Notes: generated from the sequence alone by a model not told the origin. A stretch of 55,702 nt of DNA from Candidatus Curtissbacteria bacterium RIFOXYA1_FULL_41_14 (GCA_001775095.1 MFCA01000002.1:1-55702); one strand, 5' to 3'; positions 4,709 to 53,948 are shown, counted from the stretch's first letter. A program made the numbers and translations.

Positions 4709-4903
4709 ATGAAACAAAAAACCAAAAAGGCGGCAGCCAAAAGATTTAAAATTACGCCAAAAGGAAAAATTTTAAGAGGACGCCAAATGGCAGGCCATCT
4801 TAAGATGGCGAAAACAAAAAGTGCCAAAACACGGTATAAGAGGAAGGCCTTTGTCTCTAAACCTGAGAAGAGAAGGATAGAAAGGCTAATGCCGTATAAT
4901 TAA
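4709..4903 (+). CDS. rpmI: Ribosomal protein L35
   Basis: 64-aa basic protein ...AAAKRFKITPKGKILRGRQMAGHL... with the usual position after infC. Confidence 0.93.
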   Translation: MKQKTKKAAAKRFKITPKGKILRGRQMAGHLKMAKTKSAKTRYKRKAFVSKPEKRRIERLMPYN

Positions 4904-4905
4904 AA

Positions 4906-5130
4906 ATCCTAAACTCTAAATTCTAAATCCTAAATAAATCCAAATGAGGTAAAATACAAAATTCAAAACAGGAGGATAACTATATTGTTCGAGCCCTTCG
5001 TCGAAACTCAGGGCGAGAACTAAAACTTCTCACTTTGTTCGAAGACTAAAAGGGTTTTAACTGACTATCTTTCTTTTGAACATTTGAATTTTGAAATTGT
5101 TTAGAGTTTAGAATTTAGAATTTAGAATTT
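4906..5130. repeat. Composite nested palindrome: heptamer-type arms flanking a GC-richer core hairpin
   Basis: Left arm atcctaaactctaaattctaaatcc...caaaattcaaaaca. Right arm ttttgaacatttgaattttgaaattgtttagagtttagaatttagaatttagaattt. Core ttgttcgagccc...gggcgagaac recurs at 37925-38010 and 52862-52963. Confidence 0.8.
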
Positions 5131-5569: not shown

Positions 5570-5608
5570 ATCCAGCTCTGCTGGATCTACTCCAAACATA
5601 CAAACTGC

Positions 5609-5617
5609 TGATATAAT
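5609..5617 (+). promoter_or_regulatory. Extended -10 box (TGaTATAAT) 7 nt upstream of the pheS ATG
   Basis: ctgcTGaTATAAT tcatttc ATG. No SD and no room for a leader. Looks like a remnant end of the TATATCAG/CTGATATA repeat family. Confidence 0.45.
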
Positions 5618-6647: not shown

Positions 6648-6650
6648 GAT

Positions 6651-6784
6651 GAAAATTCGAAATACGAAGCACGAAATTCGAAACAAATTCCAATTTTCAA
6701 AATACAAATGTTCAAGACGTTTTGAATTTAGGTCATTTGAATTTAAGTATTGTTTAGGATTTAGAATTTAGGATTTCGGATTTA
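6651..6784. repeat. Long imperfect palindrome (aaattcgaaa-type arms, centre acgtttt); same family as the carB insertions
   Basis: gaaaattcgaaatacgaagcacgaaattcgaaacaa...caagacgttttgaatttaggtcatttgaattta...ggatttagaatttaggatttcggattt. The 5' half is near-identical to 47299-47390. Confidence 0.85.
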
Positions 6785-9331: not shown

Positions 9332-11914
9332 TCAGTCACTCCACGACTCTCCGACAGAAACCGTAATTTCCTGCTCGGAATCACGCCCGGCCTCGTTATA
9401 AGCCTTGACTTTTACTTTGTGTTTACCTTTATTACTTTCGGCAAAGGTAAAATTAAATTTATACGGACCATCGCCTGTCTTGTTGTCTTTTATTGAGCCG
9501 TCTATATAAAACTCAACTTTGGTTACCTTGCGGCCTGTTTGAACCTCGACTTCCGTCTCGAAACTCAAATCCACCTGGTTATGATCTGAGGGTTTATTGA
9601 TCTTAACTTTAATCTCATCAGGATTTTCTGTCGGTTCATTCTTAAGTTCGCTCGGCGGACGATACTTGGGATCGGATTGACTCTGTGCCCAGGCATCAAT
9701 TCCTTCCTGCCAGCGGTTTTTGCCGTCAGTAGAAACTGGATCAAACTCGACAAAAACAAGATAATCCTTGCCGTCTAAAGTCTTTTCAACTAAACAATCG
9801 CGTGTCGGCTCAGTACCTTTAATAAAATACTCGCTTCTTTTAGGGTAATCTCGGCAGGGAAGACCGCCACCTAAAGCATCAATCTCCAGAGCTGTAACAC
9901 TATCGGGCTTGCCAAAACCTTCCGGCCCTTTATCTTTTAAAACTCTACTCATCAGTCGATTCCAAATCGGAGTAGCGCCAGTGACTCCTGAGGCAATCTT
10001 TGGATTCATTTCAGAATTGTCATTATTACCTACCCAAACACCTACAGCTGCAGACGGGGTATAGCCGACAGCCCAGTTGTCCCGTTTATCATCAGTTGTC
10101 CCGGTCTTCACCGCAACAGTTTTACTGCTAATATTTAAAAGGGAAGAAGGTCCAAAGACGTCACTTCTGGCGTTATTGTCTGAAAGAATATGTGAAATCA
10201 GGAAAGCGATATCCTCATCAATGACTTGTTTGCTTTTCCTTTCTTTAACTTCATCCATAACTTTGTTATTTTTATCCTCAACCTTAAGGATGGCAACGGG
10301 TTCGAGATATTTGCCGCGATTTGCTAAAGTCGCATAGCCTGATGTTAGATCCAAAAGCCTAACTTCACCACCTCCAAGAGTTATGGAAAGACCAAAACGC
10401 TTCAGGTTTTCATCTGAAGGTTCCAATGATTTGAGACCGGCTTCATACGCAGTCCTTAGCATGTTCTTAATCCCGACTAAAGCGGTCATCTTAACAGCCG
10501 GCATATTGATTGAATTGCCCAGAGCAAATCGAATTTGAACCGGACCCCGACTTTTTCCATCGTAATTAACGGGTTTATAAGACGGTTGACCAGCCCCTCC
10601 TGGGAATTCGGTAGGAACATCCATTATCACAAAAGCGGGTGTGTAACCGGCTTTAAAAGCCGTAGCGTAAGTAAATGGTTTAAGAGCAGAACCGGGCTGA
10701 CGCAGAGATAACGCCACGTTAACCTGACCCTCATAATCTTTGGCGAAATAATCTTTAGACCCGACCATTGCCAAAACCTCAGAAGTCACCGGATCCATGA
10801 CTACGGCCGCTCCGTTTCCCACATGAAGGTCAGCAACTTTGGCAACCTCCTCAGTCACTATTTTCTGGGCATCATCCTGCAGGTCAAGATCGAGAGTGGT
10901 AGTAACTTTTAACCCTCCCTGTTCCAGAAATTTTTCGCCATATCTTTCTGCCAGCAGGTTTCTGACATAAAAAACGAAATGGGGTGCTCTAATTCCTTGT
11001 TCACTGGCGCTAAATTTAATCTGGGGTATTTCTTTTTTTAATTCTTCCTCTTGCTCACGAGTGATATAACTATCCTCGCGCATTCTCCTTGCCACATCTT
11101 CCGCTCGTTTGATATAAGCCTCGGGTTCCGCCCCAAAAGGTGAATAATATGAAGGACGCTGCGGGAAACCTGCTAAAATAACCGCTTCAGCTAAAGTTAA
11201 ATCCTTTGCTTCTCTACTAAAGTAAGTTTGAGAAGCTGCTTCGATTCCCCAAGCCGTACCGCCGTAGGGAACTTCATTCAAATAAATTTGCAATATTTCG
11301 TCTTTAGTATATTTACGTTCGACTTGAATAGCCAAAATAAATTCTTTTATTTTACGCGTTATTGTCCGCTCCGGAGAAAGAAGGCTATTTTTTACAACTT
11401 GCTGCGTAATTGTAGAACCTCCCTGTAGTTTGTGAAAAATTAAGATGTTAAAAACAGCCCTTCCAATACCTACTGGGGAAAATCCGCGATGCTCATAAAA
11501 ATCTTTATCTTCAATAGCAATTGTTGCCTCTTTAACATATGACGGCAACTCGTTCCATTTAACAAGTGCCCGGTTTTTCTCTCCAAAAATGTCGTAAAGA
11601 AGTTTTCCATTACGATCGTAGATTTTTGTTGAAAGAGAAGCATCTCTGGCTGTTAACTTATATGGAGAGGGCAAATCCTTGGCGAAAACTATAAAAGAGA
11701 AAACTGTAAAGATAATAAGGCCGATTAGCGAAAAAAAGACTAAAGTTGTAATAAGACCAAAAAAACGAATCCAAAAACGGCGCTTATCGAAGTTTGATGG
11801 TTTTAAGAATGGGTGACTGGAAGAGCGGGATGAAAGTTTGGCTAGTCTTGATGAGAATTTACGGCTTCCCGGGCGATATGGTGCAAACTTCATAATTTCA
11901 AACAGAGAAGCCAC
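9332..11914 (-). CDS. Class A penicillin-binding protein (transglycosylase plus transpeptidase) with a C-terminal Ig-like domain
   Basis: GT51 motifs EDKDFYEHRGF, GGSTITQQ, RKIKE. Transpeptidase motifs SALKP, SINMP, KTGTT. The start may be the ATG at 11893 rather than the GTG at 11914. Confidence 0.92.
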   Translation of the reverse strand: MASLFEIMKFAPYRPGSRKFSSRLAKLSSRSSSHPFLKPSNFDKRRFWIRFFGLITTLVFFSLIGLIIFTVFSFIVFAKDLPSPYKLTARDASLSTKIYDRNGKLLYDIFGEKNRALVKWNELPSYVKEATIAIEDKDFYEHRGFSPVGIGRAVFNILIFHKLQGGSTITQQVVKNSLLSPERTITRKIKEFILAIQVERKYTKDEILQIYLNEVPYGGTAWGIEAASQTYFSREAKDLTLAEAVILAGFPQRPSYYSPFGAEPEAYIKRAEDVARRMREDSYITREQEEELKKEIPQIKFSASEQGIRAPHFVFYVRNLLAERYGEKFLEQGGLKVTTTLDLDLQDDAQKIVTEEVAKVADLHVGNGAAVVMDPVTSEVLAMVGSKDYFAKDYEGQVNVALSLRQPGSALKPFTYATAFKAGYTPAFVIMDVPTEFPGGAGQPSYKPVNYDGKSRGPVQIRFALGNSINMPAVKMTALVGIKNMLRTAYEAGLKSLEPSDENLKRFGLSITLGGGEVRLLDLTSGYATLANRGKYLEPVAILKVEDKNNKVMDEVKERKSKQVIDEDIAFLISHILSDNNARSDVFGPSSLLNISSKTVAVKTGTTDDKRDNWAVGYTPSAAVGVWVGNNDNSEMNPKIASGVTGATPIWNRLMSRVLKDKGPEGFGKPDSVTALEIDALGGGLPCRDYPKRSEYFIKGTEPTRDCLVEKTLDGKDYLVFVEFDPVSTDGKNRWQEGIDAWAQSQSDPKYRPPSELKNEPTENPDEIKVKINKPSDHNQVDLSFETEVEVQTGRKVTKVEFYIDGSIKDNKTGDGPYKFNFTFAESNKGKHKVKVKAYNEAGRDSEQEITVSVGESWSD

Positions 11915-11963
11915 ACTGGCATGAAGAACCGTAGTTCTGTGCCAAGTGGACCTGCTGATATAA
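11901..11963. repeat. Degenerate copy of the TATATCAG...CTGATATA palindromic element (family A)
   Basis: aacagagaagccacactggca...tgccaagtggacctgctgatataa aligns with 44237-44312. Confidence 0.6.
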
Positions 11964-12011
11964 AAGCTAAGTAGAGATAATTATATATCAGGACCACCTG
12001 CTTTGCGAACA

Positions 12012-13370: not shown

Positions 13371-13405
13371 ACTTTACACTTTACACTTTACACTTTACAC
13401 TTTAC
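13371..13405. repeat. Heptanucleotide tandem array (actttac x5) ending 5 nt before the recG ATG
   Basis: Five perfect units read directly. Confidence 0.95.
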
Positions 13406-13410
13406 CTGTT

Positions 13411-15492
13411 ATGGACCCAAAAACTCCTGTTAGTCAGCTTTCCGGAATAGGCAAGTGGTATTCCCAAAAGTTAAAACGCCTAGAAGTCAAAACCTTAGAG
13501 GATCTTATCTATCACTTTCCTTTCCGCTGGGATGATTTTTCTACTATTGCTAATATAAACAATATTACTCCCGGCGAAAAATTAAGCATTCAGGGCATTG
13601 TTTGGAAAATTCAAAATATCAGAACTCGCATGGGCAAATTTGTAACCTTGGCAACGATTGCCGATCAGTCGGGAACAATTGAAGTTATCTGGTTCAATCA
13701 GCCCTTTTTAACAAAAATCATCAAAGCCGGAATGCAAATTTCTCTTGCCGGCAAAGTTGAAGTTGAGGGATCTAAACCAAAACTTGTTTCCCCATCCTAC
13801 GAAATCATCAAAAGCCCTGATGTGCCAAGCTATACCACCCCAGGGGTGTCTTACGTTGACACCTCAGGAAAAGGAGTTTCCCAGACGCTACACACAGGAA
13901 GACTTGTCCCTATTTATCCGGAAACAGAAGGTGCTACTTCAAAATGGATTCGTGCCAAAATCGCTAAATATCTGCCGATTTATACAAAAAACCTGAAAGA
14001 TCATTTACCCAAAAAAATTATGGAGGAGGAACAGTTGGAAAAATTGGAATCAGCGCTAAAAAAAATCCATTTCCCAAAAAATTATGGTGAGGTTAGTCAG
14101 GCAAAGCTGAGATTAGCCTTTGATGAATTATTTCTAACACAACTAATGGCAATTTTGGCAAAAGAAAAATGGAAACAAAATCGCAAAGCGTTACCAATGA
14201 CTATAGACAAATCCAAAATTCTGACCCTTACCAAAGTCCTTCCCTTTAATCTAACCGACGCTCAAAAAAGGGCCTGCCGCGAAATTGCCAAAGATATGCA
14301 AAGGGAAATCCCCATGAATAGACTTCTGGAAGGCGACGTCGGTTCCGGAAAAACGGTTGTTGCCGCTATTGCGTCCTATATCGCATTTCTCAATGGGACA
14401 GATACTCTTGTAGCTGCTCCTACTGAGATTCTAACTTTCCAGCATCAAAAAACTTTTGAGGAAATCCTCTCGCCCTTTAAAGTGACAGTCGGCATTTGGA
14501 CAGGAAGCCGAAAGATCAAAGGTGACATTACGTGCGGCACTCACGCCCTCTTAACTACTTTTAAACCGCAAAAACAAGTCGGATTGGTAATAGTTGACGA
14601 ACAACACCGTTTCGGGACAGCTCAAAGGGCTAAGCTTTTTATGGATCAGTCCGGCAAATTAACTCCTCACCTTTTAACGATGACTGCAACGCCAATTCCC
14701 CGAACCCTTGCCCTGACTCTTTATGGTGATCTTGATTTATCAGTACTTGACCAAATGCCGACAGGCCGTCAAAAAATTGCCACCTTTGTCGTTCCAAACA
14801 ACAAGAGAAACGATGCCTATGGGTTTATTGAAAAAGAGATATCGGCCGGCAGGCAAGCATTTATTATCACACCATTTGTCGAACCTTCAGAAACAATGGC
14901 TACGGTCAAGGCAGCAACAGAAGAATTTACAAAACTCAAGAAAAATTTTTCTAAAAAAGTCAAACTTGGCCTTTTGCACGGCCGCCTTAAATCCAAAGAA
15001 AAAGAAAAAATCATCAATAACTTTAAAAACGTAAAGGTCGATATTTTAGTTGCCACTCCAGTCGTCGAAGTCGGAATTGACGTTCCCAACGCCACTATTA
15101 TGATGATAGAATCTGCTGACCGTTTTGGACTAGCCCAGCTTCATCAACTCCGCGGCCGGGTTGGCAGAGGAAAGTATAAGTCTTATTGTTTGCTTTTTAC
15201 CGATTCCCTACAAGAAAGTTCTATCGGCCGTCTTAAAAGCATGGAAAGACTTCAAATAGGATTTGAATTAGCCGAAGCTGATCTTGAAATGCGCGGACCG
15301 GGCGAAATCTTTGGACTTAAACAATCCGGCTTTGTCGATTTTAAGATTGCCAGTCTTTCCGATCATCAACTAATCGAAAAAACCCAAAAAGCCGCCCAGA
15401 AAGTTGCAAATTCCGATCCCACCCTCAAAAAATACCCGCTCCTTGCTGAAAAAATTTCTCAACTCTCAGCCGATTACTCCCAACCAAACTGA
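13411..15492 (+). CDS. recG: ATP-dependent DNA helicase RecG
   Basis: Wedge/OB N-terminus and helicase motifs GDVGSGKT, DEQHRFG, TATPIPR, QLHQLRGRVGRG. Confidence 0.95.
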   Translation: MDPKTPVSQLSGIGKWYSQKLKRLEVKTLEDLIYHFPFRWDDFSTIANINNITPGEKLSIQGIVWKIQNIRTRMGKFVTLATIADQSGTIEVIWFNQPFLTKIIKAGMQISLAGKVEVEGSKPKLVSPSYEIIKSPDVPSYTTPGVSYVDTSGKGVSQTLHTGRLVPIYPETEGATSKWIRAKIAKYLPIYTKNLKDHLPKKIMEEEQLEKLESALKKIHFPKNYGEVSQAKLRLAFDELFLTQLMAILAKEKWKQNRKALPMTIDKSKILTLTKVLPFNLTDAQKRACREIAKDMQREIPMNRLLEGDVGSGKTVVAAIASYIAFLNGTDTLVAAPTEILTFQHQKTFEEILSPFKVTVGIWTGSRKIKGDITCGTHALLTTFKPQKQVGLVIVDEQHRFGTAQRAKLFMDQSGKLTPHLLTMTATPIPRTLALTLYGDLDLSVLDQMPTGRQKIATFVVPNNKRNDAYGFIEKEISAGRQAFIITPFVEPSETMATVKAATEEFTKLKKNFSKKVKLGLLHGRLKSKEKEKIINNFKNVKVDILVATPVVEVGIDVPNATIMMIESADRFGLAQLHQLRGRVGRGKYKSYCLLFTDSLQESSIGRLKSMERLQIGFELAEADLEMRGPGEIFGLKQSGFVDFKIASLSDHQLIEKTQKAAQKVANSDPTLKKYPLLAEKISQLSADYSQPN

Positions 15493-15509
15493 TATATTTT
15501 CACAAAAAA

Positions 15510-15518
15510 TGATATTAT
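15510..15518 (+). promoter_or_regulatory. Extended -10 box (TGaTATTAT) 8 nt upstream of the ATG at 15527
   Basis: aaaaaTGaTATTAT atctccct ATG, read directly. Confidence 0.35.
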
Positions 15519-15526
15519 ATCTCCCT

Positions 15527-16021
15527 ATGGAAAGACGCAAGTTCTTGAAACTAGTAAGACTATTAGCAATCGTCGGTGGCCTCAAAGCCACTGATAAAAT
15601 CTTTCATTGGGAAAGAGCTTCGATAGATAGAGAATTGGCCATCCGGTTCAACGAAAGATTCGATGCTTTCTATCCAAAAATGTTTCCCGAAGGCACACCT
15701 GAAGAAGAAATGCTAGTTCCCGACGAATTGATGTGGGGAAGGGGCTTTGATATTAACGATCAAAACGGATACGGTCGTGTCGCTCTTGTAAAAAGACCTG
15801 ATTGCAGACGAGGGGTTTTGGCCTACATCCCTTGTGAAAAAAGCCCAATGGAGCTAACTACTCTGGGTAAGGATATAATTATAAGAAAAAACATCGCTTT
15901 AGCAAAAGAGTCAATTGATAGGCTTTGGCAACAAATTGAATCCGCTTGGGAAAACCGTCTAAATCCGCCAGTCCAAACCCCTCAACCTGGTATCCCGCTG
16001 AAACCCTGCTTAGAAAACTAA
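15527..16021 (+). CDS. Hypothetical exported protein (Tat-like N-terminus MERRKFLKLVRLLAIVGG)
   Basis: The internal ATG at 15527 lies just after the recG stop. The longer ORF-track start overlaps recG. Confidence 0.5.
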   Translation: MERRKFLKLVRLLAIVGGLKATDKIFHWERASIDRELAIRFNERFDAFYPKMFPEGTPEEEMLVPDELMWGRGFDINDQNGYGRVALVKRPDCRRGVLAYIPCEKSPMELTTLGKDIIIRKNIALAKESIDRLWQQIESAWENRLNPPVQTPQPGIPLKPCLEN

Positions 16022-16283: not shown

Positions 16284-16346
16284 ATATATCAGCAGATCGC
16301 CTTGGCACAATTCTTCAAATTCGTGCCAATGGCGCTCCTCTGATAT
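16284..16346. repeat. Family A palindromic element (MITE/REP-like), inverted orientation
   Basis: atatatcagcagatcgccttggcac-aattcttcaaattc-gtgccaatggcgctcctctgatat. Confidence 0.85.
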
Positions 16347-16347
16347 T

Positions 16348-17064: not shown

Positions 17065-17310
17065 ATGATTGATTATTTAGAAGATATTAAAAAACTAATC
17101 TCAAAACAATTCGGTATAACTGAAGATGACATCGAGGAAGATTCTTTTCTTGAGGCAGACCTTAATATAACGGATTTAGATCTCGAGGACCTTTTGGAAA
17201 GTATTCAGGATAAATACCAGATCCAGGTCCCCACTGAAAAAGTCGCAACTTTTAAAAAAGTTTCTGACATAGTCTCATACCTTTTTGAAAACGTTGAAAA
17301 TGCAGTCTAA
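17065..17310 (+). CDS. Acyl-carrier-protein-like protein lacking the canonical phosphopantetheine serine
   Basis: Aligns along its length with E. coli AcpP, and is in the usual position upstream of rnc. The DSL motif reads TDL (ADLNITDLDLEDL). Confidence 0.6.
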   Translation: MIDYLEDIKKLISKQFGITEDDIEEDSFLEADLNITDLDLEDLLESIQDKYQIQVPTEKVATFKKVSDIVSYLFENVENAV

Positions 17311-17989
17311 TCTGGTAGACCTCCAAAAAAAAATAGGTTTCAACTTTAGAAATGAATCACTCTTAAAAAACGCATTTATTCACCGCTCGTACCTAAACGA
17401 ACATAAAAACTTTAAGGATGATTCAAATGAACGCCTGGAATTTTTGGGTGATTCGATTCTATCTCTGGTGGTTTCCGCCTACCTTTTCAATAAACTCCCA
17501 AAATATCCCGAAGGAAAACTTACTCAACTTCGGGCGGCCCTCGTCAGAACGGAAACGCTGGGAAAACTAGCAAGCCAGCTCTCCTTAGGCAACTATCTTT
17601 ATCTTTCAAAGGGTGAGGAGGAGTCTGGCGGGCGGACTAGTATTTCGATCTTAGCCAATTCTTTTGAAGCTCTAATAGGAGCAATTTACCTCGATCAGGG
17701 GCTGGAAAAGACTCAAGATTTTTTAAATAAAATGATTCTTCAAAAATGGCAAATCTTGGCTAAATCAGCGGTTTCTGACAATAAATCAAAACTCCAAGAA
17801 CTGACGCAGAGAGAATCTCATCAATCGCCAGTTTATCAATTGTTAAAAAGCTGGGGACCGGATCATGCCCGCAGATTCGAAATCGGAGTTTATTTAGGCG
17901 AAAAACTATTGGGCAAGGGACTGGGTAAAAATAAACAAGAAGCCGCCCAAAACGCCGCTAAAGATGCTCTTAGTAGACTAAAGGGCTAA
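17300..17989 (+). CDS. rnc: Ribonuclease III
   Basis: Signature NERLEFLGDS, then a C-terminal dsRBD (KSKLQE...GKGLGKNKQEAAQNAAKDAL). The ATG at 17300 overlaps the ACP-like stop. Confidence 0.93.
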   Translation: MQSNLVDLQKKIGFNFRNESLLKNAFIHRSYLNEHKNFKDDSNERLEFLGDSILSLVVSAYLFNKLPKYPEGKLTQLRAALVRTETLGKLASQLSLGNYLYLSKGEEESGGRTSISILANSFEALIGAIYLDQGLEKTQDFLNKMILQKWQILAKSAVSDNKSKLQELTQRESHQSPVYQLLKSWGPDHARRFEIGVYLGEKLLGKGLGKNKQEAAQNAAKDALSRLKG

Positions 17990-22079: not shown

Positions 22080-22143
22080 TATATCAGAGGAGCGCCCTGA
22101 GTCCTGAGCTTGTCGAAGGATCGAAGGGCGACCTGCTGATTTA
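22080..22143. repeat. Family A palindromic element with a GC-rich centre
   Basis: tatatcagaggagcgccctgagtcctgagcttgtcgaaggatcgaagggcgacctgctgattta. Its left end reads TGaTATAAA on the minus strand, facing pilM. Confidence 0.8.
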
Positions 22144-22450: not shown

Positions 22451-22527
22451 GTCAGTTGTCAAATGTCATCCTTCGACTTCGCTCAGGATGACCCTGAGTC
22501 TATCGAAGGGTCAGTTGTCAATTGTTA
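22451..22527. repeat. GC-rich core hairpin flanked by direct heptamer arrays (gtcagtt gtcaaat / gtcagtt gtcaatt)
   Basis: gtcagttgtcaaatgtcat-ccttcgacttcgctcaggatgaccctgagtctatcgaagg-gtcagttgtcaattgtta. Confidence 0.8.
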
Positions 22528-23310: not shown

Positions 23311-23331
23311 CTCTAATTCCAGTTTAGGTTT

Positions 23332-23371
23332 GTCAATTGTCAATTGTCAAATGTCAAATGTTAATTGTTAT
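23332..23371. repeat. Heptanucleotide array (gtcaatt x2, gtcaaat x2, gttaatt, gttattt)
   Basis: Read directly. Confidence 0.9.
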
Positions 23372-24589: not shown

Positions 24590-25346
24590 CCACTTCCCCT
24601 GAAGTCTGAATCTTAACATTATAGGTTTTAGAGGAATCAGATACTAAAATCAAACTTATCGTTAACTGACTTTGCGGAGTAAGTAAATTTTTTAGATTAT
24701 CACTAGTATCGATAAATGGGGGAGCCACATCGTTGTGGAAACTAACACCTGCTGCCACAGACCGATAGAAAATAGTCACGTCATTAACGGAAGAACTAAG
24801 TATACTAATTCCTCCTATCTTCACGTCTCTTGGTAGATTTACCGTTTTTGAGCCAACTGTGTAACTCTCTGTTCTACTAGGATCGTCCTGACAATAACCG
24901 GCCAACAAATATGATTGGGCATCTTGGCTAATTTTAATAAACCACCCGTCAAGAATTAGGTCATCTCTTTCAGGATTACTCTCACATTTACCGCCCGTGC
25001 CCTTATCACCGGATACTGCCTTGTTTTGAATTAAGCGAATGTCGCCTTTTAGCATTTGCGCGGCACTTTTGAGCCGCTGGTTACGTTCAAAAGACAGATA
25101 AGACGCGGTTATGGCTGAAACCGCAATACCAAAAACCGTAATCACAATCATAAACTCAATTAACCCAAAACCATGACGCCTACGGCGCCAGTTGATAGTT
25201 GACCCTTCGATGTACTCAGGGTCACCTCTTCGAGCCTGAGCCTCAGAGCCGAAGGCCTGAGCTTGCCGAATGGGTGATAGTTCATAGTTGACAGTTTTCT
25301 TATTTACGCAGACCGTGAACCGAGAACCATGAACCGTGAACCTCAT
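24573..25346 (-). CDS. Minor pilin (GspH/FimT-like); start uncertain
   Basis: RRRRHG|FGLIEFMIVITVFGIAVSAI...NQRLKSAAQML. The annotated 60-aa leader is made entirely of repeat sequence. Confidence 0.7.
   Translation of the reverse strand: MRFTVHGSRFTVCVNKKTVNYELSPIRQAQAFGSEAQARRGDPEYIEGSTINWRRRRHGFGLIEFMIVITVFGIAVSAITASYLSFERNQRLKSAAQMLKGDIRLIQNKAVSGDKGTGGKCESNPERDDLILDGWFIKISQDAQSYLLAGYCQDDPSRTESYTVGSKTVNLPRDVKIGGISILSSSVNDVTIFYRSVAAGVSFHNDVAPPFIDTSDNLKNLLTPQSQLTISLILVSDSSKTYNVKIQTSGEVDESKP
25191..25341. repeat. Composite element: GC-rich core (25201-25275) within gatagtt-type heptamers, plus an inverted cgtgaac array
   Basis: gttgatagtt-[gacccttcga...ctcagggtc...cctgagcctcagagccgaaggcctgagc...]-gatagttcatagttgacagtt ... 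cgtgaac cgagaac catgaac cgtgaac. Confidence 0.8.
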
Positions 25347-27243: not shown

Positions 27244-27303
27244 TCAATTGTCAATTGTCAATTGTCAATTGTCAATTGTCAGTAGTCAGCAGTCAGTAGT
27301 AGT
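27244..27303. repeat. Longest heptanucleotide array: tcaattg x5 then tcagtag/tcagcag x3
   Basis: Read directly, in the divergent gap between the pilin and the 27316 gene. Confidence 0.95.
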
Positions 27304-37890: not shown

Positions 37891-38047
37891 TTCAAAATTC
37901 AAAAGGCAAAAGTCAAAATTATGGTAAGTTCTCGATCCTTCGATGAACTCAGAACTCGAACAATAACATATTCTTCGAGTGAGTCAGCGAAGTGACGAAT
38001 CGAGAAGTTTCCTTACTTTTGACTTCTAACTTATAACTTTTAACTTA
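37891..38047. repeat. Composite nested palindrome: inverted heptamer arms (ttcaaaa.../...ttataac ttttaac) around a GC-richer core
   Basis: The core gttctcgatccttcgatgaactcagaactcgaacaata...ttcttcgagtgag is homologous to 4985-5046 and 52862-52963. The right arm abuts the holB ATG. Confidence 0.8.
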
Positions 38048-38055
38048 TTTAAACT

Positions 38056-38836: not shown

Positions 38837-40845
<2,009 letters not shown>

Positions 40846-41453: not shown

Positions 41454-41488
41454 GACTTTTAACTTATAACTTATAACTTTTAACTTAA
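41454..41488. repeat. Heptamer array (gactttt aacttat aacttat aactttt aacttaa) ending 5 nt before the gyrA ATG
   Basis: Read directly. Confidence 0.9.
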
Positions 41489-41493
41489 ATAAA

Positions 41494-44145: not shown

Positions 44146-44191
44146 TGTTGTCATGATGTTAAGGAAAAAACCGGCAACGATACTCCACTTA

Positions 44192-44216
44192 GAAGCCCCA
44201 GGGGCTTCTTTTTTTA
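44192..44216 (+). terminator. Intrinsic terminator after gyrA
   Basis: gaagcc-ccagg-ggcttc followed by ttttttt. Confidence 0.75.
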
Positions 44217-44237
44217 ATTTGCACAAAAGTGCAAATT
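44216..44237. promoter_or_regulatory. Perfect 9-4-9 palindrome AATTTGCAC-AAAA-GTGCAAATT (possible operator)
   Basis: Read directly, between the gyrA terminator and carA. Confidence 0.3.
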
Positions 44238-44312
44238 ATATCAGAGGAGCGCCATTGGCAGGACGAGTCGAGTCTGACTCGACGAAGTCTGCCAAGACGA
44301 CCTGCTGATATA
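44237..44312. repeat. Family A palindromic element (most complete copy)
   Basis: tatatcagaggagcgccattggcaggacgagtcgagtctgactcgacgaagtctgccaagacgacctgctgatata. The right end is TGaTATAAA, 6 nt before an ATG at 44321. Confidence 0.9.
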
Positions 44313-44343
44313 AATTAACAATGGCAAACGAAAAAAATACAAA

Positions 44344-45558
44344 ATGCAAAATAAAAAAGCAAGATTAATTCTCGAAGACGGCACCATCTTTAAAGGTAAT
44401 GCAGCCGGCAGTCAGACCTCTTCAGCAGGCGAAGTAGTTTTTGCAACAGGCATGGTCGGTTATGATTTATCGCTTACCGACCCTTCTTACGCCGGCCAGA
44501 TATTAACCTTCACATACCCTTTAATCGGTAATTGGGGTGTACCGCCAAAAGAGTTTTGGGAATCGGATAAAATCCAAGTTGCTGGTCTTGTAGTCAGCGA
44601 CTTAACTACAAAACCCAGCCATTGGCAATCGCAACAAACTCTTGATGAATGGCTGAAAGAAGAAGGAGTCTCTGCAATTTTTGGTATAGATACAAGACTC
44701 TTGACCCAAAAATTACGAGATAGGGGAGTAATGCTGGGTAAAATTGTAGTTGAGGATCAGGATATCGAATTTTATGATCCGAATGCCGAAAATCTTGTCG
44801 CCAAAGTTTCGCCGAAAGAACCAAAAATCCTCAAATCCGAAATCCGAAATCCGAAATCCGAAATCCGGGTCGGCCTATTAAATTGTGGAGCGAAAAGAAA
44901 TATCCTGCGCAGTCTTCTTGCTCGAGGAGTAACCGTTTATGATCTCCCATGGAATTTCGATCCGTTCGTTTCGGACGGGTGGCAGTCGTGGAAAGGTTCC
45001 CGACAGCGCGGACCCCGCACTTTTACAAATTCTGATCAAAATCACAAATATCAAACCAACCTAAAAGTGCGGGGGAGCACTGACGGGAAGGAAACGACTG
45101 ACAGGACCCGTCCGGAATTCCCCAAACTTGACGGCCTGGTCATTTCCAATGGTCCGGGAGACCCTAAAATGGCCAAAGAGACCATCAATATTATCAAAAA
45201 AGCTTTAAAAAAGAAGATCCCAACATTCGGAATATGTCTTGGCAACCAGCTTCTGGCTTTAGCGACCGGGGGAGATACTTACAAATTAAAATTCGGCCAT
45301 CGGGCACAAAATCAACCGACTATTCAAGCCGGAACCAAACGCTGCTACATCACCACTCAAAATCATGGCTTTGCGGTCGACGAGAAAAAAATGCCAAAAG
45401 GCTTTAAGAGATGGTTTCATAATGCTAACGATAATACTAATGAGGGAATAATCCATGAGAATCTCTCATTTTTTTCCGTCCAATTCCATCCGGAAGCCAG
45501 TCCCGGGCCAACAGATACCGAATGGCTCTTTGATTACTTTTTGGAGAAATTTAAATGA
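44344..45558 (+). CDS. carA: Carbamoyl-phosphate synthase small (glutaminase) subunit, carrying two in-frame repeat insertions
   Basis: ARLILEDGTIFKG, GAKRNILR, SNGPGDP, GICLGNQLL, VQFHPEA. Confidence 0.95.
   Translation: MQNKKARLILEDGTIFKGNAAGSQTSSAGEVVFATGMVGYDLSLTDPSYAGQILTFTYPLIGNWGVPPKEFWESDKIQVAGLVVSDLTTKPSHWQSQQTLDEWLKEEGVSAIFGIDTRLLTQKLRDRGVMLGKIVVEDQDIEFYDPNAENLVAKVSPKEPKILKSEIRNPKSEIRVGLLNCGAKRNILRSLLARGVTVYDLPWNFDPFVSDGWQSWKGSRQRGPRTFTNSDQNHKYQTNLKVRGSTDGKETTDRTRPEFPKLDGLVISNGPGDPKMAKETINIIKKALKKKIPTFGICLGNQLLALATGGDTYKLKFGHRAQNQPTIQAGTKRCYITTQNHGFAVDEKKMPKGFKRWFHNANDNTNEGIIHENLSFFSVQFHPEASPGPTDTEWLFDYFLEKFK
44833..44867. repeat. Heptanucleotide array (aaatccg x5) in frame inside carA
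   Basis: Five perfect units plus a degenerate unit at 44825-32. Translated as LKSEIRNPKSEIR. Confidence 0.95.
44971..45116. repeat. GC-rich ~146-nt imperfect palindrome in frame inside carA
   Basis: The left arm tcggacgggtggcagtcgtggaaaggttcccgacagcgcggaccccgcacttttac pairs with the right arm ctaaaagtgcgggggagcactgacgggaaggaaacgactgacaggacccgtccgga. Confidence 0.9.
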
Positions 45559-48500
45559 GAAAAATCCTTCTTCTTGGATCCGGAGCTTTAAAAATCGGCC
45601 AAGCCGGCGAGTTTGATTATTCCGGATCGCAGGCAATTAAAGCTCTTAAGGAGGAAGAAATTAAGGTAATTTTAATTAACCCAAATATCGCCACAGTCCA
45701 AACATCCGAAGGCTTCGCAGACCAAGTCTATTTCTTACCTGTTGAAACACACTTCGTCAAAGAAATCATCAAGAAAGAAAGACCCGAAGGTATTATTCTT
45801 TCGTTTGGAGGACAAACCGCCTTAAATTGCGCTCTGGAACTTGCAAAATTAAGAATACTAGAAAAATATCGAGTTAAAGTTCTAGGGACCCAAATAGACA
45901 CAATTGAAAAAACCGAGGATAGGGAACTTTTCAATGAAACTTTGAGAAAAATTGGTCTGTCAATTCCAAAAAGTGTTGCGTGTAAAAGTTTAAGCCAGGC
46001 GGAAATTGCTATCGGCAAAATCGGTTATCCTGTTATCGCGCGATGCGGTTTTTCTTTAGGAGGTCAGGATTCACAAGTCATTTTCAATAATACTCAGCTG
46101 AAAGAAGCTGTCATCAGGGCTCTTTCCAAATCTCCACAAGTTCTAATTGAAGAATACTTAGAAGGCTGGAAAGAAGTGGAGTACGATGTAGTCAGAGACA
46201 AGTATGACAACTGTATTACTGTCTGCAACATGGAAAATGTCGATCCGATGGGTATTCACACCGGCGAATCAATCGTTGTCGCTCCTTCGCAAACTCTGAA
46301 TAATTTTGAATATCATAAGCTTCGGGAAATCGCCATCAAAGTGATCCGTCACCTAAAAATAGTCGGGGAGTGCAATATTCAGTTTGCTCTAAACCCCCGT
46401 CCGACAAACTCTAAATCCGAAATCCTAAATTCTAAACAATCTCAAAATCCAAATGACCTAAATTCAAAACGTTTTGAGCATTTGAATTTAGAAAATTCGG
46501 ATTTGTTTAGAAATTCGGATTTAGAAATTAGAAATTACCTCGATTATAGAATTATCGAGGTTAACGCTCGTCTTTCTCGAAGTTCTGCCCTGGCTTCGAA
46601 AGCAACCGGTTATCCATTGGCTTATATAGCAGCCAAATTGGCACTCGGATATTCGCTGACCGAACTTAAAAATACCGTTACAAAAAAAACCATAGCCTGC
46701 TTTGAACCTGCCCTCGATTATCTGGTTGTCAAAATTCCACGCTGGGATCTGGGTAAATTTCTAAAAAGCGAAACGCAAATCGGACCCTCTATGCAATCTG
46801 TGGGAGAAGTAATGGCAGTAGGACGCAAATTCGAAGAAGCAATTCAGAAAGCAATCCGCATGCTTGATATCGGACTCGAAGGTATTTTGGACAAACGCGC
46901 CCCAATCTCCAAGTATCAAAAACCCACCCCCTGGCGAATTTTCTCCGTGGCAAAAAGTCTGGCGGCCGGAGAGGCTGTCGACAAAATTTACAAGGCAACC
47001 GGCATCGACCCATTTTTTCTGGAAAAGATCAAAAACATAGTAGAGTTTGAAAAAAATATTAAAGCCTGTGATACTCGTGATACTCTTACTACCCGTGATA
47101 CTCTTCTTTTAGCCAAGCAACTTGGATTCTCTGATAAACGATTGGCAAAACTTACAAATTCAGCTGAGGAAAAGATTAGGAAACTGCGAAAAAAATATGG
47201 CATCTATCCGAAAGTCAAGCAAATTGACACTCTAGCTGCCGAATACCCGGCCCAGACGAATTACCTCTACCTTACATACAATGGAGAATCGGATGATATA
47301 AATTCGAAATCCAAAGCACGAAATTCGAAACAATATCAAATTTCAAATAACAAAAATTTTAAACGTTTTGAACATTTGAATTTAGAGAATTCGGATTCGT
47401 TTAGAAATTCGAAATACGAGAGCGTATTTTCGGAAAACCGAAAAGTGGAAATTAGAAATTCCCAAAACGATCGCAAGGTGATCGTTTTGGGATCTGGTCC
47501 TTACCGCATTGGGTCTTCCGTTGAATTTGACTGGTGCTCGGTAACATGCACCCAGACCGCTTCAAAAAATAACCTCTCCACAATAATTGTAAACTGCAAC
47601 CCGGAAACAGTCTCTACTGATTACGACATGGCCGACAGGCTTTATTTCGAAGAACTCTCTTTGGAAACTGTTCTGGAAATTTACGAAAGGGAGAAACCCT
47701 TTGGAATAATTCTCTCGATGGGTGGCCAAACTCCCAATAACCTGGCTACAAGTCTTTCTAAAAACGGAGTCAACATTCTGGGTACTAAATCAACTTCTAT
47801 CGATCAGGCAGAAGATCGAAATAAATTCTCAAACCTTTGCGATAAACTGTCAATAGACCAACCGGTCTGGGCTAAATTAAAAAATCTAAAAGAAGCTCTC
47901 ACTTTTGCCGAAAAAATCGGCTATCCGGTTCTAATCAGACCTTCCTACGTTCTTTCCGGAGCAGCTATGAACGTCGCATTCAGTTCTGAAGATCTCGCGA
48001 TATATCTTAAGTTAGCCTCCCGTATCTCTAAGGAATATCCTGTTGTGATCTCAAAATATTACGAGGAGGCTAAAGAGATCGAAATTGACGCAGTTGCGCA
48101 AGAAGGCCAGATTCTATGTTCTGCGATTTCCGAGCACGTTGAAAATGCCGGAGTCCACTCGGGAGACTCAACCATGGTTTTACCTGCTCAAAAACTCTAC
48201 CTCAAAACGGTTACTCAAATCGAAAATATCGCCCAAGAAATTGCCAAAAATTTAAAAATTACGGGCCCTTTTAACATCCAATTTTTGGCAAAAAATAATC
48301 ACGTCATGGTGATTGAATGCAATCTGCGCGCATCCCGAAGTTTTCCGTTTGTTTCCAAAGTAACCGGAGTCAACTTCATAGAGGTTGCAACAAATGCAAT
48401 CCTTAACATTAACCAAATACCAAATACTAAATACCAGATACTAGACTATGTCGGCGTCAAAGCTCCCCAGTTTTCTTTTTCCCGTATTAAAGGTGCTGAT

Positions 48501-49019
48501 CCGATTTTAAGGGTTGAAATGACCTCAACCGGAGAGGTTGGCTGTTTTGGCGATGACATCTATGAGGCCTTTTTAAAATCGCTTTTGGCAACTGGCGTAA
48601 CTCTACCCAAGAAATCGGTTTTTGTATCCCTGGCCGGCGACGAAAATAAAGTAGATTTTTTAGACAGCGCCCAAACTTTAAAAAAACTTGGCCTAAAAAT
48701 TTTCGCCACCGATGGAACCAGCAAATTTCTTAAATCGAAAGGCATAACCTCTACCAAGCTTTACAAAATTCACGAGCACAAGAAACCAAACGTTCTGGAT
48801 TTCCTGCACAATAAAAAAATCGACCTGGTGATTAATATTTTCGACCCCTATTTCAAAAAAGAATTTGATGACGATTATCTAATCCGCCGCTCTGCAATCG
48901 ATTTTGGTATCCCGCTTCTAACAAATATGCAAACCGCCGAGCTTTTTGTCAAAGCAATTTCTCTCAAAAAACTCTCTGATCTTAAAACTCTTCCCTGGTC
49001 ACAATACATCACTCCCTAG
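45555..49019 (+). CDS. carB: Carbamoyl-phosphate synthase large subunit, carrying two in-frame palindromic repeat insertions
   Basis: ILLLGSGALKIGQAGEFDYSGSQA, two ATP-grasp halves (IEVNARLSRSSALASKATGYPLA; IECNLRASRSFPFVSK) and an MGS-like C-terminal domain. Confidence 0.97.
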   Translation: MRKILLLGSGALKIGQAGEFDYSGSQAIKALKEEEIKVILINPNIATVQTSEGFADQVYFLPVETHFVKEIIKKERPEGIILSFGGQTALNCALELAKLRILEKYRVKVLGTQIDTIEKTEDRELFNETLRKIGLSIPKSVACKSLSQAEIAIGKIGYPVIARCGFSLGGQDSQVIFNNTQLKEAVIRALSKSPQVLIEEYLEGWKEVEYDVVRDKYDNCITVCNMENVDPMGIHTGESIVVAPSQTLNNFEYHKLREIAIKVIRHLKIVGECNIQFALNPRPTNSKSEILNSKQSQNPNDLNSKRFEHLNLENSDLFRNSDLEIRNYLDYRIIEVNARLSRSSALASKATGYPLAYIAAKLALGYSLTELKNTVTKKTIACFEPALDYLVVKIPRWDLGKFLKSETQIGPSMQSVGEVMAVGRKFEEAIQKAIRMLDIGLEGILDKRAPISKYQKPTPWRIFSVAKSLAAGEAVDKIYKATGIDPFFLEKIKNIVEFEKNIKACDTRDTLTTRDTLLLAKQLGFSDKRLAKLTNSAEEKIRKLRKKYGIYPKVKQIDTLAAEYPAQTNYLYLTYNGESDDINSKSKARNSKQYQISNNKNFKRFEHLNLENSDSFRNSKYESVFSENRKVEIRNSQNDRKVIVLGSGPYRIGSSVEFDWCSVTCTQTASKNNLSTIIVNCNPETVSTDYDMADRLYFEELSLETVLEIYEREKPFGIILSMGGQTPNNLATSLSKNGVNILGTKSTSIDQAEDRNKFSNLCDKLSIDQPVWAKLKNLKEALTFAEKIGYPVLIRPSYVLSGAAMNVAFSSEDLAIYLKLASRISKEYPVVISKYYEEAKEIEIDAVAQEGQILCSAISEHVENAGVHSGDSTMVLPAQKLYLKTVTQIENIAQEIAKNLKITGPFNIQFLAKNNHVMVIECNLRASRSFPFVSKVTGVNFIEVATNAILNINQIPNTKYQILDYVGVKAPQFSFSRIKGADPILRVEMTSTGEVGCFGDDIYEAFLKSLLATGVTLPKKSVFVSLAGDENKVDFLDSAQTLKKLGLKIFATDGTSKFLKSKGITSTKLYKIHEHKKPNVLDFLHNKKIDLVINIFDPYFKKEFDDDYLIRRSAIDFGIPLLTNMQTAELFVKAISLKKLSDLKTLPWSQYITP
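46408..46537. repeat. ~130-nt imperfect palindrome (aaatccgaaa/ctaaattc arms, centre aaaacgtttt) in frame in carB
   Basis: tctaaatccgaaatcctaaattctaaacaa...cctaaattcaaaacgttttgagcatttgaatttag...aaattcggatttagaaattagaaatt. Confidence 0.9.
47068..47103. repeat. Nonamer tandem repeat (gtgatactc x3 plus 1 degenerate) inside carB
   Basis: Translated as CDTRDTLTTRDTL. The gatact core also occurs in the trmD nonamer repeat at 19431-19467. Confidence 0.8.
47299..47461. repeat. ~160-nt palindromic element in frame in the carB inter-half linker; homologue of the intergenic 6651-6784
   Basis: taaattcgaaatccaaagcacgaaattcgaaacaatatcaaatttcaaataacaaaaattttaaacgttttgaacatttgaatttag... compared with 6651-6740. 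Confidence 0.92.
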
Positions 49020-52861: not shown

Positions 52862-52963
52862 TTATTCTTCGAACAAAGTGAGAAGTCTGTAGTTCTCGCT
52901 ACGCTCGAACAATATGCAAAGCATGTTGTTCGAGCCCTGAGTTTTACCGAAGGGCTCGAACAA
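52862..52963. repeat. GC-richer core repeat: inverted copy of 4985-5046 plus a perfect 12-bp hairpin ttgttcgagccc/gggctcgaacaa
   Basis: tcttcgaacaaagtgagaagt is the reverse complement of 5025-5045. The hairpin is at 52926-37/52952-63. Confidence 0.85.
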
Positions 52964-52991
52964 TAGGGGTTTCCAGCAATCTCAGATCTAC

Positions 52992-53948
52992 TTATTTATT
53001 CCCGCTATGGAATGCTTTATGAACATCCCTAAGTTGAGCATTGGTAACGTGAGTATAAATTTGGGTTGTTGCCACATTCTTGTGTCCCAAAAGTTCCTGG
53101 ACTGACCTTAAATCCGCACCGTTCATCAGCAAATCCGTCGCAAACGAATGACGCATCACATGGGGTGTAGCCTTAACTGGTAATCGAGCTTTACGTACAT
53201 ACTTTTCTAAAATCCGCTGAACGGATCGAGCAGTTAATCGCATTTTCTCTCCATTAACGGCCGGCTCTTGATTCCCTCTAGTGCGAATAAATAGGGGGTT
53301 AAAGATGTCAGTTCTTTTAGCTAAATAGCGCTCAAGCCAGATTTTTGCTCTGTCAGAAAGAAAGACTACGCGAAGTCTTTGTCCTTTCCCGATAACTCCG
53401 AACTCTCCTCGTTCCAGATTAACCTGGTCGCGATTTAAACGGCAAAGCTCCGAGACTCGAAGACCCGTTGAAAAAAGCATTTCCATAATAGCTTTGTCAC
53501 GAATACCTTGATCAGTAGACATATTAGGCTGGGCGAGCAAACGGTCAACCTGGTCTCTATCTAAAAACTTTAAAGACCGGCTTTCAACCTTTGGCAATTC
53601 AATTTTGTCAGGCGAAATAACGGGTAGATCCTTCCTTATTAAATACTTTAGAAATGACCGAAGAGCGATTACGTAATAATTTTGGGTGACTTTTTTGAGA
53701 GGCAAACCTTGTCCTGAGCGTGTCGAAGGATTACCGTTTGGACTATTGTAATGGGCTAAATTTACTCGATATTTGCGCACTAATTCGACAGTTAAGTCCT
53801 GCGGTTTGCTAATAGGGGAATGAGAACTCGACCAGGTAACAAAATTCTCAAGATAATGCCGATAATCACGAATTGTAAGAGGGGAAAGGTTACGTTCGAT
53901 TTCTAAGTATTCTAAAAACTCATCAACAAGGGCGGGCAAGTCAAACAT
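52992..53948 (-). CDS. xerC: Tyrosine recombinase XerC/XerD family
   Basis: N-terminal SAM-like domain (FLEYLEIERNLSPLTIRDYR). Catalytic R...HVMRHSFAT...GH....T.IYTH. Confidence 0.88.
   Translation of the reverse strand: MFDLPALVDEFLEYLEIERNLSPLTIRDYRHYLENFVTWSSSHSPISKPQDLTVELVRKYRVNLAHYNSPNGNPSTRSGQGLPLKKVTQNYYVIALRSFLKYLIRKDLPVISPDKIELPKVESRSLKFLDRDQVDRLLAQPNMSTDQGIRDKAIMEMLFSTGLRVSELCRLNRDQVNLERGEFGVIGKGQRLRVVFLSDRAKIWLERYLAKRTDIFNPLFIRTRGNQEPAVNGEKMRLTARSVQRILEKYVRKARLPVKATPHVMRHSFATDLLMNGADLRSVQELLGHKNVATTQIYTHVTNAQLRDVHKAFHSGNK

Follow-up and report, generated by a model that had tools for sequence, protein, structure and literature searches.

A 55.7-kb stretch of Candidatus Curtissbacteria bacterium RIFOXYA1_FULL_41_14 (GCA_001775095.1, MFCA01000002.1:1-55702; the whole stretch is called the window below) contains several copies of a short palindromic element, one of which, at 44237-44312, lies between gyrA and carA. 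The element belongs to a dispersed family with 77 paired copies, the window's included, in 28 assemblies that represent at least 28 species-level genomes of the Candidate Phyla Radiation (CPR). Our analysis indicates that it is a new Correia-like family, apparently non-coding and acting at the DNA level, in Candidatus Curtissbacteria and neighbouring CPR lineages. We consider it highly probable that this dispersed DNA palindrome is, or once was, mobile. That its ends act as promoters for at least some of the neighbouring genes is a real possibility, to which we would give, judging from sequence, a little less than an even chance. The statement that joins the two, namely a Correia-like mobile palindromic repeat family of CPR bacteria whose ends can act as promoters, is the explanation towards which we cautiously lean.

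CPR bacteria (Patescibacteria) have tiny genomes, are for the most part uncultured and are regarded as poor in mobile DNA, and to our knowledge almost nothing is known about transcription initiation in these organisms. If the element ends are promoters, a single repeat family would give start signals to core genes, among them carA, pheS, gyrB and an epimerase gene, across many species, and would thus provide a direct handle on leaderless expression in the radiation. If they are not, the family remains a useful marker, and its invariant arms and swappable apex point to a structure-specific DNA enzyme. Furthermore, the element repeats account for assembly breaks and mis-called start codons in these metagenome-assembled genomes (MAGs).

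Structure and distribution of the element

The element consists of an A arm, TATATCAG-AGGAGCGCC, a variable hairpin and a B arm, GGCGACCTG-CTGATATA (reverse complement TATATCAGCAGGTCGCC). In the window there are four full copies, a half-degenerate one, an end remnant and a mini-relative. Within it, each arm 17-mer has five matches at ≤3 mismatches, compared with 0.05–0.07 expected, and TATATCAG occurs 13 times, compared with 1.09 expected. Moreover, the single-strand folds of all window copies are much better than those of shuffled sequences (z −3.6 to −7.5). An earlier note on this DNA had treated the two ends as equivalent. They are not: the 17-nt arms, TATATCAGAGGAGCGCC and TATATCAGCAGGTCGCC, are nearly invariant yet consistently asymmetric, and their pairing leaves a bulged G and a 2×1 internal loop.

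Relatives were collected by an exact A-arm scan of one genome per species, which returned 81 stretches (loci L001–L081), and the B arm is present 41–102 nt downstream in about 74 of them. Seven A-arm matches in unrelated phyla are due to chance, as none has a B arm, and carriage by phages was likewise rejected, the single match in viral contigs being a chance 17-mer without B arm. Most assemblies with the element carry the label Curtissbacteria; a single one is Daviesbacteria, and several others are CPR MAGs that are unplaced or evidently have a wrong label. Copies are 41–102 nt long and contain no open reading frame (ORF), their density in the window is 5–7 per 55.7 kb, and exact-arm copies number up to 11 per assembly. 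About 19 of the 61 non-tandem copies display an extension on the A side, (C/T)ATAAT-TTTGAGC-nnnn-GCGAAAAAT; in Curtissbacteria loci, good matches to it (0–1 mismatch) adjoin A arms in all but two cases. Seven copies have a tRNA gene nearby, a number that by a rough estimate corresponds to random intergenic placement, and an association with tRNAs was therefore discarded. Separately, in L026 (6356-6479) a tRNA-Met gene is found within an inverted repeat of about 20 bp whose outer ends are TATATCAG and CTGATATA, that is, a functional gene occupies the 'loop' of such a module.

A structure alignment of the arms and the first nine interior bases on each side (35 distinct sequences) defines a common hairpin. 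From base to tip, it comprises 8 bp (TATATCAG/CTGATATA), a bulged G on the 3′ side, 3 bp, a 2×1 internal loop, 4 bp (CGCC/GGCG), a bulged A and 6 bp. In this alignment 92.7% of the cells pair and seven pairs change on both sides, values reached by none of 500 shuffles. Across the 77 copies, the terminal inverted repeats are perfect over 8 bp and imperfect over the next 9 bp. The interior, 11–68 nt long, is widely divergent but folds in every copy, the pairing being kept through compensatory changes. The segment '(attggca)/(tgccaag)', presented in the earlier note as a fixed part of the palindrome, belongs instead to this variable, covarying stem. Non-Watson–Crick cells are G·T in 15 cases and A·C in 10, and the apical stems are almost purely Watson–Crick. 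Complementarity is thus kept on both strands, suggesting that the structure matters as DNA rather than as RNA made from one strand.

Several candidate identities for the hairpin were rejected. A dedicated RNA gene is ruled out by the lack of strand bias in G·T versus A·C and by the lack of an Rfam family; the only gathering-level Rfam match in the window is tRNA-Val, none covers the element, and the best sub-threshold match over it is a plant miRNA precursor (E = 0.046), which reflects a generic hairpin only. The core motifs of hammerhead, twister, K-turn and tRNA-intron structures are either absent or not general across copies. An intrinsic terminator does not fit either, because the flank after the hairpin reads A-A-W-T-T without a T-run and the terminator scan flags gyrA 44191-44209, not the element. 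As for a mini-ORF, AGGAG-10 nt-ATG is found in one subfamily only and the B arm has stops in two of three frames.

The family is part of a superfamily of small hairpin modules that have the same 8-nt termini and are stacked in tandem. Sister hairpins with these termini and other interiors include TATATCAG-CC-GCCAGnnnGCTGGC-CC-CTGATATA and TATATCAG-A-TTCGCC-GAAA-GGCGAA-G-GCTGATATA. Such modules often lie directly ahead of an A arm with TATA in common, which generates the junction palindrome CTGATATATCAG; the array at 38837-38918 of the window is an example. Longer copies have an additional hairpin nested in the apical loop, as in L072, whereas L056 lacks it at the orthologous site.

Mobility, constraint and relation to known repeats

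Evidence for mobility comes from the placement of copies. Elements with identical interiors are found in different species at unrelated sites (L010, L017 and L024; L008, L016 and L066), and the 60-nt flanks of identical elements are 42–58% identical, compared with a random mean of 54%. Orthologous sites can be filled or empty, all such comparisons being between species only. L011 and L014 have a copy in the serS 3′ untranslated region (UTR), placed between the stop codon and the terminator, and L046 has none there. Upstream of sucC, L050 has the element, whereas L056 and L072 have TGATAAAAT followed by 6 nt and GTG. Between gyrA and carA, the window, L068 and L028 have a copy, whereas L173 has a different palindrome in this spacer. 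The syntenic loci L068, L028 and L009 came from the element scan, and L173 came from GyrB/CarA synteny scans, which otherwise returned mostly distant phyla. Moreover, L040 has an inverted copy at the site occupied in L034 and L062, and the A-side extension has moved along with the A arm. Intergenic sites have gained, lost, inverted and re-filled their copies. The description of the element in the earlier note as a dispersed palindromic family resembling MITEs (miniature transposable elements with inverted repeats) or repetitive extragenic palindromes (REPs) is therefore well founded: it spans at least 28 species, with identical copies at unrelated sites, filled and empty orthologous sites, arrays and remnants.

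The arms appear to be constrained to a much greater degree than their surroundings. A flanking gene family in common with another copy was observed for 21 of the 77 copies. In such orthologous pairs, 31–34 of 34 arm positions are identical even where the flanks are at the random level. Between L027 and L052, flank identity is 97% and 82% and arm identity 34/34, but the apical part has been replaced wholly (44 nt versus 16 nt). Judging by these alignments, the arms are subject either to selection or to ongoing homogenisation, and it is the apex that turns over. An enzyme recognising the arm structure, or gene conversion between copies, would both spread and homogenise the element.

Several results weigh against this picture. 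A target duplication of 2–5 nt outside the termini was not found (P = 0.29–1.0), and a TA/TATA duplication within the termini would escape this test. The search for an associated transposase that the earlier note had proposed produced none: no transposase, REP-associated tyrosine transposase (RAYT; Y1 HUH) or integron integrase is found among the window genes, and about 600 kb of flanking DNA from the 81 loci contains no gene that repeatedly adjoins the elements. An empty allele of the 22080 copy was not found in metagenome contigs by a flank-to-flank pattern, and four DNA sequencing runs contain no read joints skipping the 11901, 16285 or 22080 copies. Finally, since the loci were retrieved by means of the A arm, its invariance is partly ascertainment; the B arm, which played no part in the retrieval, deviates by only 0–2 bases. 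Distant arm pairs enclosing a gene were not found in the loci searched. The sole recombinase of the window (52992-53948) is XerC/XerD-like and scores 108.7 bits as an integron integrase, compared with a cut-off of 265 bits; it has orthologues in the loci L084, L091 and L107, in which no copy of the element was detected.

Among known repeats, the closest architectural parallel is the Correia element of Neisseria (Correia repeat enclosed element, CREE; also NEMIS). CREE are non-coding palindromes of 69–157 bp with ends that begin with TATA; they are mostly intergenic and often 5′ of genes, have two end variants that give symmetric and asymmetric copies, form several length classes and leave end fragments (PMC2649163). 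One or both of their ends give rise to promoters, and a partial −10 can be completed on insertion: in the 'Black' promoter flanking bases complete the partial −10 of the end, and in the 'Snyder' promoter the −10 lies in the first bases and reads inward (PMC2649163). The element described here is likewise a small non-coding palindrome with TATA ends, end variants, a candidate −10 that flanking bases would complete and end remnants. However, the likeness concerns architecture alone. The sequences are not similar, and for the CREE terminus, TATAGTGGATTAA, the window has 12 matches compared with 21 expected; the element is shorter (41–102 nt) and has a hypervariable, covarying apical hairpin in place of a conserved core; it has no internal −35 and resides in a CPR host with many leaderless genes; and its arms are conserved over at least 28 species, whereas CREE are conserved within one genus.

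REP sequences and bacterial interspersed mosaic elements (BIMEs) of Enterobacteria and Pseudomonas are also short imperfect palindromes that occur in intergenic clusters with conserved bulges and compensatory changes, comparable to the mini-modules of 34–36 nt found here. In contrast to REP/BIME, however, the hairpin lacks a GTAG foot, a RAYT (Y1_Tnp) gene was detected neither among the window genes nor in the DNA flanking the 77 copies, and the modules are arranged in tandem with TATA in common instead of alternating and have AT-rich, promoter-like termini. Integron attC sites resemble the element in having conserved outer arms with extrahelical bases around a variable but folding centre, and a comparable function would need a folded single strand. 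Unlike attC sites, the copies are single, dispersed and in both orientations among housekeeping genes rather than in a cassette array, no integron integrase was found in the window, and the R/L box consensus GTTRRRY is absent from the element. Enterobacterial repetitive intergenic consensus sequences or intergenic repeat units (ERIC/IRU), RUP, BOX, Nezha and the Rickettsia palindromic elements (RPE) are, like the element, short, non-autonomous, multi-copy structured repeats able to alter the expression of neighbours, but none has its termini or arms and most are confined to a genus. A further difference from other MITE-like repeats is that the several subfamilies observed here are linked by the 8-nt terminus alone.

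The ends as candidate promoters and competing explanations

Shine–Dalgarno sequences are rare upstream of the window genes, and many ATGs lie 6–8 nt past a TATAAT-like box, e.g. gggTATAATtagaaacATG at 54238. Of 335 genes in Curtissbacteria loci, 80 have a −10-like hexamer whose end is 6–8 nt ahead of the ATG, roughly double the background frequency at other offsets. This pattern indicates that leaderless genes are probably widespread in Curtissbacteria. TGn precedes 29% of such hexamers, compared with 8% of control hexamers, TGA being the commonest form, and most of these boxes are not element ends. Thus, TGATATAAT is near the lineage's own leaderless-promoter consensus. The element terminus, cTGATATA, equals the consensus TGnTATAAT minus its last two bases and would become the usual extended −10 of the lineage by the addition of two flanking bases. 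Since only these two bases are needed, a copy landing upstream of a gene could supply or replace its promoter.

The arrangement of the copies is consistent with this possibility. The earlier note had asked how copies are oriented and spaced relative to downstream starts. In the retrieved loci, 39 B ends face a gene start, and for 9 of these the start codon is 7–11 nt away, about four times the 2.1 expected under uniform placement (P = 3.6e-4); A ends face gene starts rather than gene ends at 43:25 (p = 0.04). Furthermore, divergent intergenic contexts outnumber convergent ones 16:6. For A ends, six start codons of at least five different genes are located 19–23 nt out, where the conserved extension ends. 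For both carA and pheS, the intrinsic terminator of the upstream gene precedes the element and the start codon follows it, so that the promoter must lie within about 100 nt. At pheS of the window just the element end remains, as a perfect TGATATAAT 7 nt from the ATG, whereas the orthologous rplT-pheS spacer in L009 has a full element. In the mechanism that we favour, transcripts from the B end would have their first base about 7 nt out and lack a leader if an ATG lies 7–11 nt away, and those from the A end would begin with a brief conserved leader, ATTTTTCGCnnnnGCTCAAAATT, running up to the ATG. The ends, in some cases the ends alone, as at pheS of the window, would be retained by selection for promoter function, and not all copies would be promoters. 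Portable outward promoters that give leaderless transcripts, as proposed in the earlier note, are thus plausible, as far as sequence can tell.

A number of observations speak against promoter function. No −35 was found at the correct spacing for the element ends. The B-end hexamer is usually TATAAA, with T at its last position in only 22% of B ends, and at carA itself the box at 44306-44314 also lacks this T; indeed, a canonical hexamer with the conserved A and final T in the right register was not found at the B end of any of the three carA copies (window, L028 and L068). Because orthologous copies are not independent, the B-end distance statistic reduces to about seven independent events. 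Some copies lie in 3′ UTRs, as at serS, or face gene ends. Promoter-like boxes also read into the element: a perfect TGTATAAT lies 4 nt ahead of the hairpins in L027 and L052, and a TATAAT-like box just past the terminator in each of the three carA loci could do the same. Lastly, neither groundwater metatranscriptomes of the studies in which the window occurs (X21–X24) nor mine-drainage metatranscriptomes of a study with the commonest 58-nt variant (X27–X29) gave any read coverage. Separately, TTGGCA of the apical stem was considered as a −35 and rejected, its spacing to either end being wrong and variable.

The boxes that read inward suggest an alternative in which the element is a transcribed, cis-acting UTR hairpin. 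Either a box ahead of the A arm or a native promoter would drive transcription through it, the stem, lying in the 5′ or 3′ UTR, would serve as an RNase III site or mRNA stabiliser, and the promoter-like ends would be a by-product of AT-rich termini. We consider this unlikely, though it is the strongest of the competing explanations. It would account for the TATAAT-like box found at a fixed distance, 18–25 nt before the A arm, on about 19 of 61 copies, those of all three carA loci among them, as well as for the boxes in L027 and L052 and the copies within the serS 3′ UTR. The window also has an RNase III gene (17285-17989), and the hairpins of Correia elements are RNase III substrates once transcribed (PMC2649163). 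Moreover, unpaired bases on the A-to-B strand are purine-rich (537:266), with many GAA/GAAA loops and GAA/GAA internal loops, but this signal is weak because many copies have their loops by common descent. However, both orientations relative to the flanking genes occur and no Rfam family matches. The nearly pure Watson–Crick stems, with no excess of G·T over A·C, would be unusual for an RNA over long divergence. In addition, the A-side box is part of a near-palindrome and in several loci reads ATTATG, which doubles as the start codon of the gene on the opposite strand.

The conserved irregularities of the stem raise another alternative, in which the arms are the site of a hairpin-specific single-stranded DNA enzyme, either a REP/RAYT-like HUH transposase or a tyrosine recombinase acting on an attC-like site, and the promoter likeness is incidental. 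The extrahelical G, 2×1 loop and bulged A are conserved in all copies, the loops are strand-asymmetric, the apical length varies between invariant arms as in attC sites, the apical part has been exchanged between near-identical loci and no flanking duplication was found, all of which would fit such an enzyme. On the other hand, neither a Y1/HUH transposase nor an integron integrase was found in the window, the only recombinase there is the XerC/XerD-like one with orthologues in loci where no copy was detected, no enzyme gene recurs beside the elements in the 81 loci, and the copies are not in cassette arrays. This explanation also leaves the excess of B ends at 7–11 nt from start codons unexplained, and we regard it as rather improbable. 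An equally doubtful elaboration combines the two functions in a portable promoter cassette, more than a selfish repeat, specific to CPR bacteria and maintained by the host, whose folded arms would be read by an enzyme that installs, inverts and re-fills the element and exchanges its apex. In such a cassette, which we would likewise place among the improbable readings, the B end would provide a leaderless start and the A end a fixed leader of about 15 nt without Shine–Dalgarno sequence, amounting to mobile wiring of housekeeping genes in minimal genomes. Finally, it is very improbable that the arms form a fixed, immobile duplex operator for a global regulator or nucleoid protein: they are conserved at orthologous sites despite saturated flanks, and copies adjoin the housekeeping genes carA, pheS, gyrB, secA and sucC, but no dimer on duplex DNA could span a half-site spacing of 11–68 bp, identical copies occur at unrelated sites, orthologous sites are filled or empty, and nested or tandem arrays and end remnants exist.

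Copies in the window, the carA locus and other repeats

The copies of the window and the features of the carA locus are listed below.

Features of the palindromic family in the window (positions counted from the first letter of the stretch)
Feature	Position	Strand	Details
Intact type-1 element, focal copy	44237..44312	+	A arm 44237-44253, apical hairpin 44254-44295, B arm 44296-44312 (1 mismatch)
Intact type-1 element, A arm first	22080..22143	+	Right end CTGATTTA; apical CCTGAG...TCGAAGG module; fold z −3.6
Intact type-1 element, inverted (B arm at left)	16285..16347	-	Upstream of nusB; fold z −7.5
Type-1 element, inverted	38837..38888	-	Inner helix CGCC/GGCG changed to CAAC/GTTG, compensatory; fold z −6.5
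34-nt mini-hairpin	38885..38918	+	TATATCAG-A-TTCAGC-GAA-GCTGAA-G-GCTGATATC; fold z −5.4
Half-degenerate type-1 element	11901..11963	+	B arm 15/17, A arm eroded, terminal TATAT lost; fold z −3.6
B-end remnant CTGCTGATATAAT	5603..5617	+	Makes perfect TGATATAAT 7 nt ahead of pheS ATG at 5625
Possible collapsed remnant, uncertain	11984..12005	+	TATATCAG directly followed by GACCACCTGCT, B-arm-like
Outward extended −10-like box TGATATAAA at B end	44306..44314	+	Read from sequence; candidate promoter
A-side extension TTTAATTTGCACAAAAGTGCAAAT	44213..44236	+	Weak form of (C/T)ATAAT-TTTGAGC-nnnn-GCGAAAAAT
15-codon upstream ORF MANEKNTKCKIKKQD	44321..44368	+	Begins 8 nt past element; out of frame with carA

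The copies reported in the earlier note are real, with two corrections: the copy given as 16284-346 is off by one, and the hairpin at 38885 has only its 8-nt termini in common with type 1 and therefore represents a sister subfamily, which is also found in L021, L042, L046 and L081. The mini-hairpin overlaps the 38837 copy by TATA, and its right end lies 7 nt ahead of the gyrB ATG. The neighbouring genes PheS, GyrB, GyrA, CarA and PilM were identified by Pfam, and GyrB and GyrA of the window are about 80% identical to those of a Curtissbacteria MAG. The gene names and spacings given earlier stand: TGATATAAT-7 nt-ATG for pheS, TGATATAAA-6 nt-ATG for the upstream ORF (uORF) at carA, TGATATCAC-5 nt-ATG for gyrB and 38 nt for pilM, the A end of the 22080 copy pointing at pilM about 38–40 nt from its minus-strand ATG. 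The 11901 copy sits between the divergent PBP1A and Tyr/Trp-tRNA synthetase genes. The claim that all copies are intergenic holds if PBP1A starts at the ATG at 11893 and fails with the GTG at 11914 of the longest ORF.

The focal copy folds as DNA with −20.2 kcal/mol (z −5.9), equally well on both strands, and begins 28 nt beyond the intrinsic terminator of gyrA (44191-44209). L068 and L028 have the element at the same gyrA-carA site in the same orientation, and in these loci CarA itself begins 5 nt (L068) and 7 nt (L028) past the element. In the window, the uORF overlaps the carA ATG at 44344, and one additional A in the A7 run at 44331-44337 would fuse it to carA. The arrangement of element and uORF is identical in six independent assemblies; an identical carA locus is present in contigs of GCA_000994225.1 and GCA_001775175.1. 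An alternative hexamer, TAAATT, lies at 44311-44316. If this were the real −10, transcription might start near 44323, giving carA a 21-nt leader without a Shine–Dalgarno sequence.

A solo terminus was observed at the end of recG (15489-15531), where CTGATATA holds the recG stop codon and is followed after about 11 nt by TGATATTAT, 8 nt and ATG. This box and ATG resemble another leaderless promoter. The ORF list has a TTG start at 15404 in another frame, and the start of the gene after recG has probably been mis-called there.

Other repeats were noted in the window and in related genomes. A second palindromic family, (GA)CCCTGAG...TCGAAGGG(TC), is found at 22489-22524, 25189-25224, 4974-5020 and 52928-52974, and the same motif forms the apical part of the 22080 copy and of the copies in L037, L052 and L074. 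In related genomes a GTCATTC...GAATGAC palindrome family fills spacers, including the gyrA-carA spacer of L173 (~1330-1400) and L046 5470-5700. Tandem heptamer repeats occur upstream of many genes, some −35-like (TTGACAA) and others −10-like (TATAACT, TAGAATT and TACACTT), with arrays at 27246-27290, 23321-23365, 38015-38053, 41455-41493, 5100-5130, 13371-13401 and 489-533 of the window. From their sequences, these tandem heptamers may represent arrays of phased promoter boxes. Within coding sequence, an in-frame run of AAATCCG heptamers, KSEIRNPKSEIR, lies at 44818-44877 of carA, in the linker between the two CarA domains.

The carB gene (45555-49019) has two in-frame insertions, one at aa 284-329 (46405-46541) and the other from aa 582 to apparently ~640 (47299-47411). 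Both are built of a heptamer-flanked palindromic repeat of about 136 bp, which is also present between pheS and pheT (77–83% identity) and has related copies at 6648-6783 and 4899-5130. These insertions resemble the Rickettsia palindromic elements, which enter housekeeping genes without breaking the reading frame. Gene calling in one assembly (L186, GCA_000994225.1) splits carB into two ORFs.

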